DNA of 64,000 nt from Geobacter sp. (lineage in GTDB: Bacteria > Desulfobacterota > Desulfuromonadia > Geobacterales > DSM-12255). This document shows positions 10,633 to 17,085 of this stretch, piece by piece. Position numbers and translations under genes: made by a program. Position 1 is the stretch's first letter. Each line of letters starts with the position of its first letter. The DNA lies in contig WKKR01000008.1 of NCBI GenBank assembly GCA_009684525.1, forward strand, positions 23,386 to 87,385, given 5' to 3'. The notes under the pieces were generated by a model. It was not told where the DNA came from, made no database searches, and saw nothing but the letters and a program-made list of their open reading frames with translations.

Positions 10633-12588
10633 TCAGCTCGCTTCTGTCAAGGCTGCAAGCTCTTCCCACTCGGCATAAAGTGCCGCCAGCCGGGCCTCGA
10701 TGGCAGCATGCTCGCTGCCCGCCTGCTGCAGGGCCGCATAGTCGGCGGCCATCTCCGGGGCTGCCAGCCGGGCCTCCACGTCCTGCAGCGCCTTTTCCTC
10801 CTGGCCGATGGCGGCCTCCAGCTCGCCGATCCGTTTGGTCCGCGCCCGCTCTAACTTCTGGCGCTGCTTCTCCTCCTCCCGCTGACGGAGGCGATCCTCC
10901 TTGGAGAGCTCGTAGCTCGGCAGCGCGGCCTCGGCTGCGCCCGCCGTTGCAACGGGACCGCTTGCCCGCACCTCGGCAGAGGTCTGCTGGCCGGACTTCT
11001 TCGCCAGGAAGTATTCGTAATCGCCCGGATAGGAAGTGAGTCCGCCCCCTTCCACCTCCACCACCCTGGTGGCAAGCCCGTCGATGAAGTAACGGTCGTG
11101 GGAAACGAAGACCAGCGTGCCCGGAAAGGAGCGGAGCGCCTCCAGCAGCACCTCCTTGCTGAACAGGTCCAGGTGGTTGGTCGGCTCGTCCATCAGGAGC
11201 AGGTTGGCCGGCTTGAGCAGCATCCGCGCCAGGGCCAGCCGGTTCTTCTCCCCGCCGGAGAGGACGCCGACCTTCTTATTGATGTCGTCGCCGGAAAAGA
11301 GGAAGGCGCCCAGAATATCCCGCAGCTGTGGCACCATGTCGTACGGGGCGGCAGAGAGCAACTCCTCGTAGGCGCTTTTGGTCTGGTCCATGACCTGGGC
11401 CTGGTCCTGGGCGAAATAGTCGAGCGACACGTTGTGGCCGATCCGCCGCTCCCCTGCCTGGTGCGGTTCGCCGTTCAGGATCCGCATGAGCGTCGACTTG
11501 CCGGCGCCGTTATGCCCCACCAGGGCGATCCGCTCGCCGCTCTCGATGGTCAGGTCGACGTGGTCCAGCACGGTCTTCTCGCCGTAGCGCTTGACGATGC
11601 CGGCAAGCTCCATCACGATCCGGCCGCTCTTGGGCGGGGCCGGGAAACGGAAGCGGATACGTTTACGTTCCGGCGGCAGCACGATCCGCTCCACCTTCTC
11701 CAGCTGCTTGATTCGCGACTGCACCAGCGACGCCTTGTTGGCGTTGTAGCGGAAGCGGCGGATGAAATCCTCCATCGCCTCCACCTCCTCGTCCTGGCGC
11801 CGCTTTGCCTCGCGCAGCGCCGTCACCCGCTCCTCCCGCTGCACGAGATAATTGCTGTAGGAGCAGTGGTAATCGGTGAGGGTATGGTTCCAGACCTCGG
11901 TGATCCGGTGGCAGACCTGGTCGAGGAAGAAGCGGTCGTGGGAGACCAGGATCACCGAATAGGGGTAGCTGCAGAGGTACTCCTCCAGCCAGTTGCGCGC
12001 CTCGATGTCCAGGTGGTTGGTCGGTTCGTCCAGAAGGAGGATGTTGGGCTTCTGCAAGAGCAGCCGGGCCAGGGCGATCCGCATCTGCCAGCCGCCGGAG
12101 AAGTCCCCGCAATCCCGCTCCCAGTCCTGCCGGGAAAAGCCGAGGCCGCGCAGCACCGTCCCCACCTCCGCCTCCATGGCGTAGCCGCCGCGGATGCGGA
12201 ACTCCTCCTGGCGCTGGCCGTAGCGTTCCAGGATCGCCGCGTGCTCTGGGGCGTCGTGCGGCACGGTTGCCAGCCGCCCCTCCAGCTCTTTCAGCTCGGT
12301 CTCTATCTGCCGCAGGTCGGCCAGCGCCGACAGTGCCTCGTCGAACAGGCTTTTGCCCTGTGAGACGATCCCTTCCTGCGGCAGGTAGCCTACCGTCGCA
12401 CCCTTGGCAAGGCGGAGCTCGCCGGACGACGCCTCCACCTGGCCGGCGATGATCCGCATCAGGGTCGACTTGCCGGCGCCGTTCTCCCCCACCAGGCCGA
12501 CCCGCTCCCCCTTGGGCAGATGCCAGCAGATGGCGGTGAAAAGCGGTTTGGCGGCGAATTCCTTGGTCAGGTTGTCGAGCTGCAGCAT
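10633..12588 (-). CDS. ABC-F family ATPase
   Basis: Two ABC cassettes (GENGAGKS/GHNGAGKS, FSGGW/LSGGE, LLDEPTNHLD twice), no TM segments, C-terminal coiled coil. Confidence 0.93.
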   Translation of the reverse strand: MLQLDNLTKEFAAKPLFTAICWHLPKGERVGLVGENGAGKSTLMRIIAGQVEASSGELRLAKGATVGYLPQEGIVSQGKSLFDEALSALADLRQIETELKELEGRLATVPHDAPEHAAILERYGQRQEEFRIRGGYAMEAEVGTVLRGLGFSRQDWERDCGDFSGGWQMRIALARLLLQKPNILLLDEPTNHLDIEARNWLEEYLCSYPYSVILVSHDRFFLDQVCHRITEVWNHTLTDYHCSYSNYLVQREERVTALREAKRRQDEEVEAMEDFIRRFRYNANKASLVQSRIKQLEKVERIVLPPERKRIRFRFPAPPKSGRIVMELAGIVKRYGEKTVLDHVDLTIESGERIALVGHNGAGKSTLMRILNGEPHQAGERRIGHNVSLDYFAQDQAQVMDQTKSAYEELLSAAPYDMVPQLRDILGAFLFSGDDINKKVGVLSGGEKNRLALARMLLKPANLLLMDEPTNHLDLFSKEVLLEALRSFPGTLVFVSHDRYFIDGLATRVVEVEGGGLTSYPGDYEYFLAKKSGQQTSAEVRASGPVATAGAAEAALPSYELSKEDRLRQREEEKQRQKLERARTKRIGELEAAIGQEEKALQDVEARLAAPEMAADYAALQQAGSEHAAIEARLAALYAEWEELAALTEAS

Positions 12589-12694
12589 GCAATACCTCGT
12601 TGGGGATCGATAACCGCTCTATTTAGCGGCAATCAGCGTCGGATGTCAATGTTGCAGCCGCTGGACCGGCTGCTGCGGGCCGCTCAGCAGGGTA

Positions 12695-12791
12695 AGTGTA
12701 AAATTTCTTTACACTAAAAATGTTATAACCAGTTGATATGCAACTTGATTTTGCCGGGTGTCTGCGGTACACCCTTGGTAGTGCCCAATGG
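12695..12791 (+). promoter_or_regulatory. Conserved module, copy C; candidate cassette-array promoter
   Basis: AGTGTAAA-ATTTC-TTTACACT 12695-12715; IHF consensus (minus) 12726-12738; -35 TTGATT 12745-12750, 17 bp, -10 TACACC 12768-12773. Confidence 0.8.
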
Positions 12792-12800
12792 AGGATGTGC

Positions 12801-13154
12801 ATGTTGAAGGATATGAAGGCGTATGCCCATTTAAAGCCGGGTCAGGACGGGACCAAGCGGCTGGTGGAGCAATACGGCGATGCCTTGCTCTGCGTCCGTT
12901 ACCGCTTTGATGAAGTGCGCGGCGTGAAGCTGAAGACGGTTGAGATCATCGTCGACGAAAAGCCGCTGCAGTCCCCGCGCTTCAAGCATGATGACCTGGT
13001 GCCGGTTCGCGTTGCTTATGACGAGGTGGAGCTGCGGCAGCAGTTGCGCGCCATGCGGGGGCGATGGGATGCGGAAAGGAAGTTGTGGTACGTCCGATAT
13101 GGATTGATCCGCGGTACTCCGCTGGAAGAGCGGCTTGCGGAGCTGTACGAATAG
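12801..13154 (+). CDS. Hypothetical 117-aa protein (KPGQxGTKRL..QYG..L.CVRYR motif; C-terminal RWDAERKLWYV resembling DUF5710)
   Basis: GGAGG RBS at 12790; host-like GC; domain resemblance is from recall only. Confidence 0.8.
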   Translation: MLKDMKAYAHLKPGQDGTKRLVEQYGDALLCVRYRFDEVRGVKLKTVEIIVDEKPLQSPRFKHDDLVPVRVAYDEVELRQQLRAMRGRWDAERKLWYVRYGLIRGTPLEERLAELYE

Positions 13155-13161
13155 CTGCGAG

Positions 13162-13240
13162 ATTACCGATATAAGTAACTTAGAAGATTACTTATATCGA
13201 TAATAAATTACCTATATTGGTAATAAATTACTTATATCGT
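13162..13240. repeat. Array of ~20-bp AT-rich repeats (three direct, one inverted) upstream of the attI-like core
   Basis: ATTACTTATATCGATAATAA 13187, ATTACCTATATTGGTAATAA 13207, ATTACTTATATCG 13227; inverted copy ATTACCGATATAAGTAA 13162. Confidence 0.85.
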
Positions 13241-13247
13241 GAAACTT

Positions 13248-13265
13248 GCTAATAACTAGTTGTCC
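13248..13265 (+). other. attI-like recombination core (GCTAATAACTA/GTTGTCC)
   Basis: TAAC...GTT simple-site layout; GTTGTCCG is complementary (7/8) to the R'' CGGCCAAC of the first attC. Confidence 0.65.
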
Positions 13266-13273
13266 GAGGAAAT

Positions 13274-13834
13274 ATGAATAGAGAAGATTTTCAGGATCGG
13301 TTTTCGAGTGCGACAGATTCGGCTGTCTCTTTTGCGCGGAGCTATGTCTTAAACGAGTTGCCAAACCAAAGAGTATTCCTGATTTTTCCAAATCAGTCCT
13401 TCGATGGCAATCCCCTTGAAGCTGACGAGGAAACCTATCCGAGTGACACTCAAATCGATGACAAACCAATTGTTTTTGCGACGGCTGAGGCCGTCGTTGA
13501 TTATCTCTGGAGAGACTTCAAGGTTCCAGAGTGGATCGACGTAAGTGTTGGAGGAGCAGACGGTGAGCGCACGTATATTCACCTTCTATGCTGTGGCCGA
13601 TTTACTGCAACTAGCGAGTTACTGTACCACCGCGATGGAGGCGTTTCCCCATTTTCTGTCAAGAGCCCAATCCTTCCACCAGGCTACGATGACGCTGCAG
13701 AAGCTGATACTCAGAAATTCGATGTAAATTGGCGAGAAAAGGCAAAGAAGGAATTTCAAGAAAATCAAAAAAACGAGGGCGGATTGCTTCATCGTCTACT
13801 GCACTCGACGCAATCATTATTCCGAAGCCAGTGA
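13274..13834 (+). CDS. Cassette 1 hypothetical protein (VPEWIDVSV...LLCCGRF motif)
   Basis: 186-aa ORF with GAGG RBS immediately after the GTT core; low GC. Confidence 0.8.
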   Translation: MNREDFQDRFSSATDSAVSFARSYVLNELPNQRVFLIFPNQSFDGNPLEADEETYPSDTQIDDKPIVFATAEAVVDYLWRDFKVPEWIDVSVGGADGERTYIHLLCCGRFTATSELLYHRDGGVSPFSVKSPILPPGYDDAAEADTQKFDVNWREKAKKEFQENQKNEGGLLHRLLHSTQSLFRSQ

Positions 13835-13846
13835 ATGAGAAGAAAA

Positions 13847-13901
13847 CGGCCAACCATCGGCAAGACCCGCCGAGGGCGGGTCAGCCTCACCACCGTTATG
13901 C
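13847..13901 (+). other. attC site 1
   Basis: CGGCCAAC ... GGC-AA-GACCCGCC-GAG-GGCGGGTC-A-GCC hairpin ... GTTATGC. Confidence 0.75.
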
Positions 13902-13926
13902 AGCAAGAAAATTAAGGGATAATCTA

Positions 13927-14367
13927 ATGACTGAACTCGACGAAAAATATGAATGCCTCAGAAAAACTTACGCAGACGGCAATCTGGATAAATTGTCTAT
14001 AGAACAGTTGAAAGATTATCACTCAATGGTAATGACACACGGAAACCGAAACCAACTAAACCAAGACACCTATAATCATTTAATCAATGAAATTAGCAAC
14101 ATAAAAAGACATAAGGAAACCCAAGAGAAACTTAAAGAACTTAAAAAGCCGCATTGGACAGTAAACCCTACTTTTTGGGTCAGTCTTATTGCAATGACAG
14201 CCGCCTGTATTGCAGCGTTTTTCACTGTTTTCCCTCGATCTTCTCAACCCGCAAACGGAGGTCAGAAATTTCTTGGGACAAAACAGACCGTTCAAAGTGT
14301 TGCCGCCGATTTACAACAGCAGTTATCAAGTTCACAACAAGTATCAAACAAAGAAAAGCAAAAGTAG
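13927..14367 (+). CDS. Cassette 2 ORF a: hypothetical protein with one TM helix and a Q/S-rich tail
   Basis: ATG at 13927 after AAGGGA; KPHWTVNPTFWVSLIAMTAACIAAFF TM segment; very AT-rich. Confidence 0.65.
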   Translation: MTELDEKYECLRKTYADGNLDKLSIEQLKDYHSMVMTHGNRNQLNQDTYNHLINEISNIKRHKETQEKLKELKKPHWTVNPTFWVSLIAMTAACIAAFFTVFPRSSQPANGGQKFLGTKQTVQSVAADLQQQLSSSQQVSNKEKQK

Positions 14368-14404
14368 CAATAGCATAGTGTCTGTCTGAAGATGAAAATT
14401 TCAT
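14222..14404 (-). CDS. Possible antisense 60-aa TM/coiled-coil peptide
   Basis: AGGAGG 4 nt before ATG; YAIATFAFLCLILVVNLITAVV hydrophobic stretch; overlaps the 3' tail of 13927-14367. Confidence 0.35.
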   Translation of the reverse strand: MKFSSSDRHYAIATFAFLCLILVVNLITAVVNRRQHFERSVLSQEISDLRLRVEKIEGKQ

Positions 14405-14454
14405 AAAACCTCCTACATGTCCTAACAAAATTCGATCCTAGAAACGAGGTAAAC

Positions 14455-14871
14455 ATGAAAAACCATCAGCTATTAATTGCCATTTCGTCATTTCTTGTGC
14501 TGACTATTGCGACACCTCTTCTAGCGGCTGACGGATGGTATTTGCTTGTCCCACCGAGAAGTAAGTACGATAAAAATGCCGAATACTTGAGCGGATACAA
14601 AATATTAGACAGTAAACCGTTATCTCAGTGGCATCAGCAGGGCGCGTATGACTCTGCTTCTGAATGCGAAGATGTGAAACATAATCTGACCATGATTGAG
14701 CAAAATACTTATTCCAAGACATCTGAAAATTATATTGACGCAGTTCGTTCCGAGAAATCGAAAGCTGTGTTGGAGTTCCAACGCGCCAGTGTAGAGGCAT
14801 TAAACGCCAATGTTTTTGCTTTTATGGCAAGTCGTTGCATTAAAAGTAGCGACCCAAGATTAAAACAGTAG
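14455..14871 (+). CDS. Cassette 2 ORF b: secreted hypothetical protein
   Basis: GAGG RBS; signal peptide ending LLA-AD; two Cys. Confidence 0.75.
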   Translation: MKNHQLLIAISSFLVLTIATPLLAADGWYLLVPPRSKYDKNAEYLSGYKILDSKPLSQWHQQGAYDSASECEDVKHNLTMIEQNTYSKTSENYIDAVRSEKSKAVLEFQRASVEALNANVFAFMASRCIKSSDPRLKQ

Positions 14872-14880
14872 ACCGGGATG

Positions 14881-14953
14881 CCATCCAGAAAGATGCACTC
14901 AGTCGGACGCGGAAGAAGCCCCGCGCCGCTGGTGATTTCCCGGCCCGTTGTGT
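14881..14953 (+). other. attC site 2 (degenerate R'' box)
   Basis: AT-G-CAC-T-CAG-T-CGG-A-CGCGG pairs with CCGCG-CCG-CTG-GTG-AT with unpaired bases; ends CCCGGCCCGTTGTG identical to attC 3; no AAC at R''. Confidence 0.7.
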
Positions 14954-14969
14954 GAATAAAAGGAAAACT

Positions 14970-15467
14970 ATGCCCAAAACTAAGCATGACGACATAGTCG
15001 ATTATTGGTCGGAGCACCAAGATGAATGCGGATTGAGCGTCGATTGGGCAGAAGCGCATGAGCGTTGTTGGAGATGCGGCTATAAAAGCAAGCTCGAACG
15101 TTGCCACATTATTCCAGATTCAATGGCTGGGCCTGATGAACCGTCAAATCTTGTGCTCCTTTGTCATCGCTGCCATAGAGAAGCACCAAACGTGAAGGAC
15201 CCAAGATTCATGTGGATTTGGATTCGTGCATACGGAACGTCATTTTACGATACGTTCTGGACTCTCCGCGGAATGGAAGAATTTGAAAAGATGTTCAAAC
15301 GCAAGCCATTTGCCGAATTTGAAGCAAGAAATATTTCACAGGAAGTAATCAGAGCGGCAATGTTTGAAGCAATGCAGTCAGCAACTATTCATTTTGGCGA
15401 GGGGAGGATGAATCCTTCCACAATTGCTTGCGTTCTTTATCAAGTTGAAGAAAAGCTCCTCAAATAA
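14970..15467 (+). CDS. Cassette 3: HNH endonuclease
   Basis: CWRCG...ERCHIIP...NLVLLCHRCH zinc-finger HNH motif; AAGGA RBS. Confidence 0.85.
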   Translation: MPKTKHDDIVDYWSEHQDECGLSVDWAEAHERCWRCGYKSKLERCHIIPDSMAGPDEPSNLVLLCHRCHREAPNVKDPRFMWIWIRAYGTSFYDTFWTLRGMEEFEKMFKRKPFAEFEARNISQEVIRAAMFEAMQSATIHFGEGRMNPSTIACVLYQVEEKLLK

Positions 15468-15468
15468 G

Positions 15469-15543
15469 CACACAACCAGGCCCTTGGACGCCGACCGGGG
15501 CTGAGAAGCGCCCCGGTGCGGGTCATGGCCCGGCCCGTTGTGC
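15469..15543 (+). other. attC site 3
   Basis: R'' CACACAAC is the exact reverse complement of the cassette start GTTGTGTG (14947-14954); inner stem ACCGGGGC/GCCCCGGT; ends GTTGTGC. Confidence 0.85.
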
Positions 15544-15557
15544 TTAGAAAGTGAAAT

Positions 15558-16028
15558 ATGACTCCAATTCAAGAGGCAATTACCGGCAAAGAAGACCTGG
15601 GGCAGTTGAATTCTCCATTCCTTGCACTGGCCCAGTTTTATCGCGCCTTCAATGCACGCGATATGGATATGATGTCCGAGAATTGGGCTCAGTCGGACGA
15701 CATCTCCATGGATAACCCGCTTGGCGGCATCAAACGCGGCTGGGATGAGATACGAGCCGTCTATGAACGTATTTTTCATGGAGCTGCAGAAGTCTCTGTG
15801 GAGTATTATGATTACACCATCCACGAGACAGCTGAGATGTTTTATGCCGTGGGAAGGGAGCGGGGGTATTTTCGCCTGGGCGGCACTGAGATTAAACTCG
15901 CCATTCGTACCAGCCGTATTTTCAGAAAAGCGGAAGGTCGCTGGCGGCAGGTACACCATCATGGCTCAATCGAAGACCCGCATCTGTTGGCACACTATCA
16001 ATCCGCCGTAATGGGCAGTACATCGTAA
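15558..16028 (+). CDS. Cassette 4: SnoaL-like / NTF2-fold protein
   Basis: FYRAFNARDMDMM..NW, NPLGGIKRGWDEI, IRTSRIF....G.WRQVHHHGS. Confidence 0.85.
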   Translation: MTPIQEAITGKEDLGQLNSPFLALAQFYRAFNARDMDMMSENWAQSDDISMDNPLGGIKRGWDEIRAVYERIFHGAAEVSVEYYDYTIHETAEMFYAVGRERGYFRLGGTEIKLAIRTSRIFRKAEGRWRQVHHHGSIEDPHLLAHYQSAVMGSTS

Positions 16029-16106
16029 CTCGCCTTACCATCGGGTGGCGCGGAAATTCCATACTACCTCAAGTCAAAAGCCCCAGACTGAAAGCGAACT
16101 ATCCGG

Positions 16107-17036
16107 ATGAACATAACCAACCTCCTGATCCATCTGCACCACAACGTCGATGCCTTTTCCTTCAAGCAGCGCCACCTGGACCAGCTCCGCGTAGCGCTCC
16201 CCGATACCCGGATCACCGTGGCCAGCGACAATCGCGATTTCATGGCCCGCCTTCCCGATGCCGATGCCGTCATCGCCTGGCTATTCAAGGCGGAATGGTA
16301 CGACGAGGCCCGGAAACTGAAGGTGGTGTTCACCCCTGCTGCCGGTCGCGACTGGGTTGACGGAGACCCCTCCGGCAGGGTGGCGACGCGCCACGGCAGC
16401 TTCCACGGCCGCATCATGCGTGAAAGCCTCCTGTCGATGATGCTCTACTTCAACCGCCGCGTCGGCATGTCGCTTGACGACCAGCGGAACAGGCACTGGG
16501 GCCGGCTGGACTACAGCTCGTGCGTGGCGCTCTTCAGCCAGCAGGTGCTCCTGGTCGGCTACGGTTCGCTGGGCCGGTCGATGGCGGAGCTGCTGCGGGC
16601 GTTCGGGGCCGGGGTGACGGGGGTCAGGCGCAGCATGATCGGGTCCGGCGCCGATCCCGTCGTCGAGCGGGTCGTCCCGTTCGACCGGCTGGAGGAGGAG
16701 CTGCCCCATGCCGATCACGTCGTGCTGCTCCTGCCGGGCGATGCGACGACCGACGGGATCTTCACGGCGCGGCATTTCAGCGCCATGAAGCCGGGGGCCT
16801 GCCTCTACAACCTGGGCCGGGGAAACTGCTACCGGGAGGAGGACCTGCTGCATGCCCTGCAACAGGGACCATTGGCCGGCGCAGGCCTGGATGTGTTCGC
16901 CGAAGAGCCGCTGCCGCCCGAATCGCCGCTCTGGAGCCAGCCGAACGTGCTGATCACACCGCACTCCAGTGCCATCAGCCGCGAATATGTCGATCTCTCC
17001 ATCGAGGAGATGATCGCTGCCCTGCGGGAGATGTGA
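16107..17036 (+). CDS. D-2-hydroxyacid dehydrogenase (NAD(P)-dependent)
   Basis: GYGSLG Rossmann motif, NLGRG, GLDVFAEEPLP, ITPHSS. Confidence 0.9.
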   Translation: MNITNLLIHLHHNVDAFSFKQRHLDQLRVALPDTRITVASDNRDFMARLPDADAVIAWLFKAEWYDEARKLKVVFTPAAGRDWVDGDPSGRVATRHGSFHGRIMRESLLSMMLYFNRRVGMSLDDQRNRHWGRLDYSSCVALFSQQVLLVGYGSLGRSMAELLRAFGAGVTGVRRSMIGSGADPVVERVVPFDRLEEELPHADHVVLLLPGDATTDGIFTARHFSAMKPGACLYNLGRGNCYREEDLLHALQQGPLAGAGLDVFAEEPLPPESPLWSQPNVLITPHSSAISREYVDLSIEEMIAALREM

Positions 17037-17085
17037 TATTACGGGAATTGATGGCGATAACGCTACGCTGAAGCAGGAGGCAACC

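Follow-up and report, generated by a model that had tools for sequence, protein, structure and literature searches.

The locus described here occupies part of a 64,000-nucleotide stretch of a Geobacter sp. genome (the window) and centres on an open reading frame of 117 amino acids on the plus strand that we call X, a name also used for its protein. An integron is defined by three parts: the integrase gene intI, the recombination site attI and the promoter Pc. X stands between a promoter module and an attI-like core that is followed by cassettes, and the features of the locus, in the order of the forward strand, are the following.

12695..12715, no strand assigned: palindrome AGTGTAAAATTTCTTTACACT, read directly, putative operator of the upstream promoter module
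12716..12800, plus strand: remainder of the promoter module and ribosome-binding site (GGAGG, 12790-12794)
12801..13154, plus strand: gene X, 117 amino acids, from the open reading frame and its translation
13163..13243, no strand assigned: four dyad-symmetric units TTAC-N8-GTAA, putative X-binding sites, from a pattern search against shuffles
13163-13178, 13188-13203, 13208-13223 and 13228-13243, no strand assigned: the individual palindromic units, centred at 13170.5, 13195.5, 13215.5 and 13235.5
13244..13265, plus strand: attI-like core AACTTGCTAATAACTAG/TTGTCC (cut before TTGTCC), with GTT at 13259-13261
13266..16030, plus strand: low-GC cassette array, from the GC profile and Pfam
13274-13834, 13927-14367, 14455-14871, 14952-15467 (HNH) and 15558-16028 (SnoaL-like), plus strand: cassette open reading frames, from Pfam
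~13847-13901, ~14862-14953 and 15469-15544: attC-like sites, from R''/R' boxes and paired arms judged by eye

The reading frame of X extends from the ATG at 12801 to the TAG at 13152-13154. A longer in-frame alternative starts at 12738 and would encode 138 amino acids; the start at 12801 is favoured because X homologs all begin MLK(D/E)MK. The sequence-only reading had proposed a genuine gene with a strong ribosome-binding site, a host-like GC content unlike that of the cassettes, several basic and aromatic motifs and a repeat array right behind the stop codon. This description stands. The GGAGG lies 6 nt 5' of the ATG; the GC content is 0.59 in X, against 0.63 upstream (0.63 in the host) and 0.42-0.45 downstream; the quoted motifs exist and occupy columns that are invariant, or nearly so, in the family (P13, G14, G17, T18, R33, R35, D37, E48, W89 and W96); and the array starts 7 nt behind the stop codon, at 13162, with its first palindrome at 13163.

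The assignment of X to the platform rather than to the cassettes, also put forward in that reading, is borne out by its position. A gene cassette is preceded by a GTT core and followed by its own attC; X is no cassette because it precedes the first GTT core and lacks an attC of its own, the elements coming after it being palindromes and not an attC hairpin. Within the array, R''/R' boxes of the attC-like sites read CGGCCAAC...GTTATGC and, at 15469-15544, CACACAAC...GTTGTGC, and a repeat family (D1) connects two of the three sites. No integron integrase was found in the window's genome (G000), which is 100% complete, the best TIGR02249 score being 84.3 bits against a cut-off of 265. The locus is thus no complete integron in the sense of an array with intI beside it. 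Clusters of attC sites lacking an integron integrase have been named CALIN (Cury et al. 2016, PMC4889954), and with its three attC-like sites, judged by eye, and no intI nearby or genome-wide, the window array falls under this term (at least two attC and no intI within 4 kb). It differs in that CALIN are defined by attC alone, whereas the window array keeps a head, made of promoter, X, palindromes and attI-like core, that is conserved across genomes.

The gene upstream of X encodes an ABC-F ATPase. In two genomes of the same genus (G003 and G004), EVE and RNase G come after ABC-F, X and the cassettes are missing, and the homology of the window to these genomes stops at ~12655; everything from the promoter module to the array, X and the sites included, is therefore accessory DNA. 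The interval between ABC-F and EVE/RNase G (12589-17085 of the window, compared with loci L091, L092 and L095) is a variable hotspot, in which G003 and G004 carry unrelated inserts of 1.5-2.1 kb; a third genome (G005) shares the 2-hydroxyacid dehydrogenase and then has different low-GC DNA up to the contig end. X-headed arrays elsewhere are rich in toxin-antitoxin pairs (ParE/ParD, Phd/YoeB, MazE/PemK, HicA and HigB-like in L225, 6631-8623, and L050, 7681-10367), and another (L227) holds a restriction-modification pair; both kinds of content are typical of chromosomal integron cassettes.

X belongs to a widespread protein family. At E <= 0.001, 1,131 homologs were retrieved from a 90%-clustered collection, nearly all of them 115-125 amino acids long and unnamed, and at E <= 1e-10 the family amounts to 1,620 clusters when grouped at 50% identity. 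Of the 23 genomes of its own bacterial family, 21 contain X, frequently in several copies. Identity between copies is at odds with taxonomy (60% within the genus, 87% in another genus), and X is therefore accessory DNA in these genomes as well. Over a sample of 401 genomes of the phylum, it occurs in 11, seven of them in the same order, the window's own genome counted, while integron integrases occur in 136. A second large branch of 658 proteins belongs to Methylomirabilota/Rokubacteria, with one further member in an Acidobacteria MAG. The module, that is the order of gene, sites and core, is thus seen in at least three phyla, with differing site sequences.

Where an integron integrase is at hand, its association with X is close. 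The genomes of the bacterial family contain ten complete intI genes scoring 340-365 bits (TIGR02249 cut-off 265), and next to every complete Geobacteraceae intI with enough flank (8/8) X is found in divergent orientation, 75-175 bp from the intI start, preceded by a conserved TTTACA-N17-TATATT promoter. The X-linked IntI proteins, for example that of L051 (G018:C11), are ~464 amino acids long and possess an extra conserved N-terminal SAM-like domain of the core-binding type, two Phage_int_SAM_4 stretches being recognised by Pfam. No X-like reading frame was found beside intI of other lineages, at 30 loci from the phylum, three of which come from the same order and have IntI frames of ~330-363 amino acids. 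Judged from these loci, X belongs to one integron lineage, in which it is placed between intI and attI.

Most X loci have no adjacent intI. Among the 74 named loci with enough upstream flank, a full intI is present at 14, a partial one at 4 and none at 56, and intI is absent from 5/5 Rokubacteria loci; this census concerns cis positions only, except for the 23 family genomes, which were covered genome-wide. In a maximum-likelihood tree, the window X falls in a well-supported clade of 12 rows, none with an adjacent intI (10 without it and 2 with too little flank). Its sister clade has intI, and the whole tree requires at least ten independent losses of the integrase gene. The copies of the window clade reside in different chromosomal contexts and their homology starts only at the ribosome-binding site; a by-eye comparison of the last 30 nt before the ATG revealed no conserved left-end recombination motif in this clade. 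Among intI-less copies, dN/dS ranges from 0.02 to 0.17 with dS > 1: X is under strong purifying selection there, and the palindromes and the core are conserved across the same divergence. Pseudogenes also occur among the intI-less copies (L005, L008, L020 and L021).

Such pseudogenes, the want of a functional annotation for X and the existence of X-less platforms that work as array heads could be taken to mean that X is a fixed hitchhiker devoid of platform function, for instance an old first cassette minus its attC, whose linkage to the repeats reflects co-inheritance. This is very improbable in our view, given the location of X upstream of the GTT core with no attC, the recurrence of one gene-site-core order across three phyla with different site sequences, the strength of purifying selection and the strict position beside intI.

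The palindromic sites are confined to the interval between X and the core. With two mismatches allowed, a search of the window for TTAC-N8-GTAA scores 8 strand matches, all within the four-unit array, against 0.06 expected from shuffles. The centres are spaced by 25, 20 and 20 bp and the last one lies 23.5 bp from the GTT. The array ends in GAAACTTGCTAATAACTAG, after which the cut mark is followed by TTGTCC, with the GTT starting at 13259; GTTGTCC (13259-13265) is part of a block conserved at the same position in ~100 loci, including loci with intI, and is a candidate attI crossover core. In most loci the block that comes after the repeats reads ..GAAAC-N4-yTAATAAC-kA-GTTrrr, and it is also seen as (c)TAAC-N7-8-(t)TAAC-GA-GTTrrr. 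Throughout these ~100 loci, 2-6 dyad-symmetric sites of 16-18 bp lie within ~0-30 bp 3' of X and are followed by the attI-like core and low-GC cassettes. The succession of X, palindromes, core and low-GC DNA was recognised in ~25 loci of the family and in 80 named loci, from Geotalea, Geobacter, Geomonas, Pelotalea, Trichlorobacter and Desulfuromonadaceae; the exceptions are few and consist of contig ends or IS-like sequence inserted within the repeats.

The geometry of these sites is constant across clades with different arm sequences. Over 55 loci, the spacing between centres is 20 bp in 73 instances and 25 bp in 25, and the distance from the last centre to the G of GTT is 23 bp in 28 of the 55, the remainder mostly corresponding to 23 bp plus one missed unit. 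The arms are of the TTAC, TTTC, TTCC, TCAC, CATC or GTTTCTA type according to X clade, and GC-rich in Rokubacteria (for example GCATCCACATGTGGATGC). Three genomes with both kinds of locus (G001, G014 and G020) have arms at their intI-less platforms that differ from those beside the resident intI. X positions 9, 56, 97 and 113 correlate with the arm type, and the groups so defined coincide with clades; the co-variation of arms and X clades is confounded by co-inheritance. Upstream of X no palindromes were found, the best match being 10.1/16 against 9.75/16 in controls, and copies serving autoregulation or the control of intI were rejected for that region.

IS-like insertions within the palindromic units were encountered in L113, L131, L118 (after X) and L226. 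The first three share the junction TAT(A/C)(T/C)CAGG, cut, (c/g/t)(c/a/t)(c/t)TTGAAAAA, a hint of an element directed at these sites; the insertion in L226 differs and carries an HTH_Tnp_1 gene.

Structure prediction, proposed earlier as a check on X, delivered a confident two-domain model and no significant match among solved structures. The AF2 model, built from a 44-sequence alignment, has a pLDDT of 90.4 and a pTM of only 0.51 because the two small domains are joined by a loose hinge. The N-terminal domain (amino acids 1-50, pLDDT 92.4 when modelled alone) is predicted as beta-alpha-beta-beta and carries the invariant LKPGQxGT loop together with R33/R35/D37/K45/T46/E48; the C-terminal domain (amino acids ~65-117) is DUF5710-like and carries W89/W96. 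Foldseek returned no significant match for the whole model against PDB and BFVD or for the N-terminal domain against PDB, and the family profile found nothing among the sequences of solved structures (best E 1.1). There was no match in NCBIfam and only one weak match in PHROGs, to a family of unknown function.

Several assignments were considered and rejected. The top Foldseek match of the N-terminal domain, E. coli NrdR (E 0.72, TM 0.51 over 47 columns), is non-significant and serves as a lead only; an NrdR-like repressor requires a four-cysteine zinc ribbon, against a single conserved cysteine (C31) in X. Homology between the two domains by internal duplication was dismissed with a profile-profile probability of 1%. 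An excisionase of the Xis/RDF type is disfavoured by the model of two small alpha/beta domains, with no winged helix or HTH, and by the absence of any RDF-family match in Pfam, NCBIfam or PHROG. X is no iteron-binding Rep_3 initiator either: no Rep_3 (PF01051) match was detected and the DUF5710-like tail is all they have in common.

The resemblance of the C-terminus to DUF5710, noted in the sequence-only reading, proved to be a genuine match that stays below the threshold for membership: PF18974 aligns with residues 79-100 of X (profile positions 11-32 of 44; E 1.7e-4) at 21.7 bits, under the Pfam gathering cut-off of 26.5. A match at E <= 0.01 is shared by 39 of 44 members of the X family (best 8e-7), the motif G-(A/G)-(R/K)-W-D-x3-K-x-W-x-V agrees with the family profile, and the C-terminal part gives local Foldseek matches to viral DUF5710 proteins in BFVD, with an rmsd of 1.6-2.5 A over 34-37 residues. 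By sequence, X is a remote or partial relative of DUF5710 and not a curated member. Our literature search yielded a single paper naming this domain, as part of Acinetobacter Rep proteins, where it is fused to Rep_3 replication initiators of plasmids (PMC11233732); X differs in having no Rep_3, primase or other catalytic domain.

These fusions bear on a reading in which the palindromes would be arm-type sites for the second N-terminal SAM-like domain of IntI, and X a partner of IntI or a replication-linked factor acting via DUF5710. The two Phage_int_SAM_4 stretches of the long X-linked IntI would suit such sites, and a link to replication would accord both with the Rep_3 fusions and with the reported resolution by replication of cassette insertion at attI (PMC3458562). 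However, several intact palindromes per locus persist in genomes without IntI and in an intI-less clade whose synonymous divergence is saturated, the arm types at the intI-less platforms of G001, G014 and G020 mismatch those beside the resident IntI, and dyad symmetry would be expected of sites for a small dimer more than of sites for a monomeric arm-binding domain. We consider this reading improbable.

The interpretation that we favour, and to which we would give an even chance, is that X is a dedicated platform component acting as a sequence-specific DNA-binding accessory factor of attI recombination. We infer DNA binding, dimerisation and an effect on recombination or transcription from the sequences compared here. 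The X gene, lying between the outward promoter and attI, would be co-transcribed with the cassettes, and an X dimer would bind the dyad-symmetric sites 3' of its own stop codon. With sites two helical turns apart and ending a fixed 23 bp from the GTT crossover, the bound protein would build up a nucleoprotein array directly beside the boxes of attI to which the integrase binds. This array would assist or control recombination at attI, and hence cassette recruitment, in the manner of the arm-site and RDF-type accessory proteins of other tyrosine recombinases; as a by-product, it may gate read-through into the cassettes. Dyad symmetry, phasing, a fixed distance to the crossover and restriction to the interval between X and attI are best fitted by such an attI-local nucleoprotein array, and the co-variation of arms with X clades points toward it. 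A role in recombination architecture would account for both the fixed 23-bp register and the strict place of X beside intI.

Known recombination systems offer partial parallels. In the attI1 site of class 1 integrons, DR1 and DR2 are core-like direct repeats to which IntI1 itself binds, without any additional encoded protein. They resemble the X-linked sites in directly preceding the simple site (L/R boxes and GTT), between the outward promoter and the first cassette; the X-linked sites differ in being dyad-symmetric, unlike the core, phased by 20 bp and coupled to a gene of their own. A second comparison is provided by lambda Xis, P2 Cox, L5 gp36 and ArgR/PepA at cer: small proteins encoded beside the recombinase occupy phased site arrays by the core, build the recombination architecture and are sometimes transcription regulators. 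X differs from them since it belongs to no Xis/RDF family of Pfam and has no winged helix, and since its presumed sites are palindromes and not direct repeats. No RDF is known for integrons. In our literature search on integrons and RDFs, the latter were named for other elements only, and in one paper the term refers to phage tools (PMC11551772). For chromosomal integrons, accessory proteins have been postulated to take part in attI x attC recombination (PMC8946536), and the same idea of a protein needed besides IntI is found in PMC11551772. Like these postulated factors, X would be a non-IntI protein acting at attI; they differ in that they are thought to be host-encoded, whereas X is encoded by the platform and would have its own sites.

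The majority of loci without adjacent intI (56/74), the X-less platforms, the pseudogene copies and the lack of a significant fold match to any solved DNA-binding protein count against X as an accessory factor. X is maintained in an intI-less clade and genome, and a recombination-independent role would fit this at least as well. No integron integrase exists in G000; X would therefore act there only on the DNA or the transcription of its own and of X-less cognate arrays, or with an integrase provided in trans. It can be argued from this long survival without intI that X also, or instead, gates transcription.

The core of the upstream palindrome, GTGTAAA-N5-TTTACAC, lies at 12697-12715 within 12695-12715, and it precedes X homologs in two other genomes (two copies in G001:C13, and L163), which makes 3 of ~100 loci including the window. 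In L163 the whole upstream module is alike, and the X that it precedes belongs to a different clade. The operator and promoter modules span 12695-12791 in the window, 1211-1298 in L004 and 4827-4900 in L163. The neighbourhood check proposed in the sequence-only reading therefore had a mixed outcome: the homologs are firmly tied to the repeat array, the attI-like core and intI, while the upstream palindrome module is weakly associated with them. Its scattered recurrence suggests that X-headed arrays were repeatedly recruited under one regulon and that the module is not inherent to the platform. In 12560-13320, neither a sigma-70-type promoter nor a terminator was detected; reading by eye produced a sigma-54-like -24/-12 candidate at ~12766-12779. 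The promoter module would transcribe X and, by read-through, the cassettes. A classical Pc repressor acting through a sigma-70 promoter inside the repeats was rejected, as the window contains no such promoter and 67 loci show no enrichment, with 7 promoters found between X and the cassettes against 13.8 expected.

A distinct element, conserved in the place of intI within the 150 nt that precede X or the palindromes, was noticed in several intI-less loci (L005/L100, L006/L103, L007/L102, L011, L014, L030 and L223). It reads ttgtgag..cacttttatg..ggagccaatgatgg, then has a GC-rich hairpin and a T-run (agccgc...gcggctttt) just before the ribosome-binding site of X, and could possibly combine promoter, short leader and terminator as an attenuator candidate.

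X could instead be mainly a transcription regulator, which as a palindrome-bound roadblock or gate on read-through would tune cassette expression independently of the integrase. The cassettes would depend on read-through, since neither terminator nor promoter separates X from the first cassette and promoters are not enriched in this interval. Purifying selection keeps X and its sites in clades and genomes deprived of intI, the promoter ahead of X has been exchanged for different ones among genomes, the operator module of the window being one of them, and the X-less arrays with cognate sites in G000 are situated behind their own promoter. A roadblock, however, would need neither the fixed 23-bp distance to the GTT nor clade-wide phasing; no sites are found at the promoter of X itself or at that of intI, and an operator array downstream of the regulator gene would be unusual. 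We hold a mainly transcriptional role to be unlikely, if the least so of the alternatives to an accessory factor.

G000 contains three further heads of low-GC arrays made of palindromes and an attI-like core without X (C8:36700-36773, C5 ~310770-310960 and C4:484264-484370), and X-less heads are also present in G003, G006 and G008; X is therefore not needed in cis. The units at C8 are of the TTAC type; the last of them and the core behind it match those of the window almost exactly, so that one X could serve both heads and action in trans is plausible. G000 also contains a decayed X (L002, C4:2115-2234), in which an internal deletion joins the N-terminal 41 residues to the C-terminal tail and behind which no palindromes are found; its upstream region matches that of an intact X in the sister genome (G005:C294).

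Returning to X as an accessory factor of attI recombination, a more specific proposal, which we regard as doubtful, is that a portable landing pad is made up of X, its palindromes and the core. In it, X would be an integron-encoded, RDF-like specificity factor that licenses a stretch of double-stranded DNA for use as attI, whether the integrase comes in cis or in trans, possibly by contacting the extra N-terminal domain of the long IntI. If true, this would explain the intact heads on integrase-less arrays, the coexistence of several site types per genome and the continued recruitment of cassettes.

Our literature search retrieved no description of a gene that lies between intI and attI and brings its own sites. 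The X module would represent an integron platform with a fourth component, a protein plus its sites, conserved at attI. It constitutes a concrete candidate, with defined putative DNA sites, for the accessory protein postulated in attI x attC recombination (PMC8946536). It also allows the heads of cassette arrays without integrase to be recognised and may explain how such arrays stay organised.
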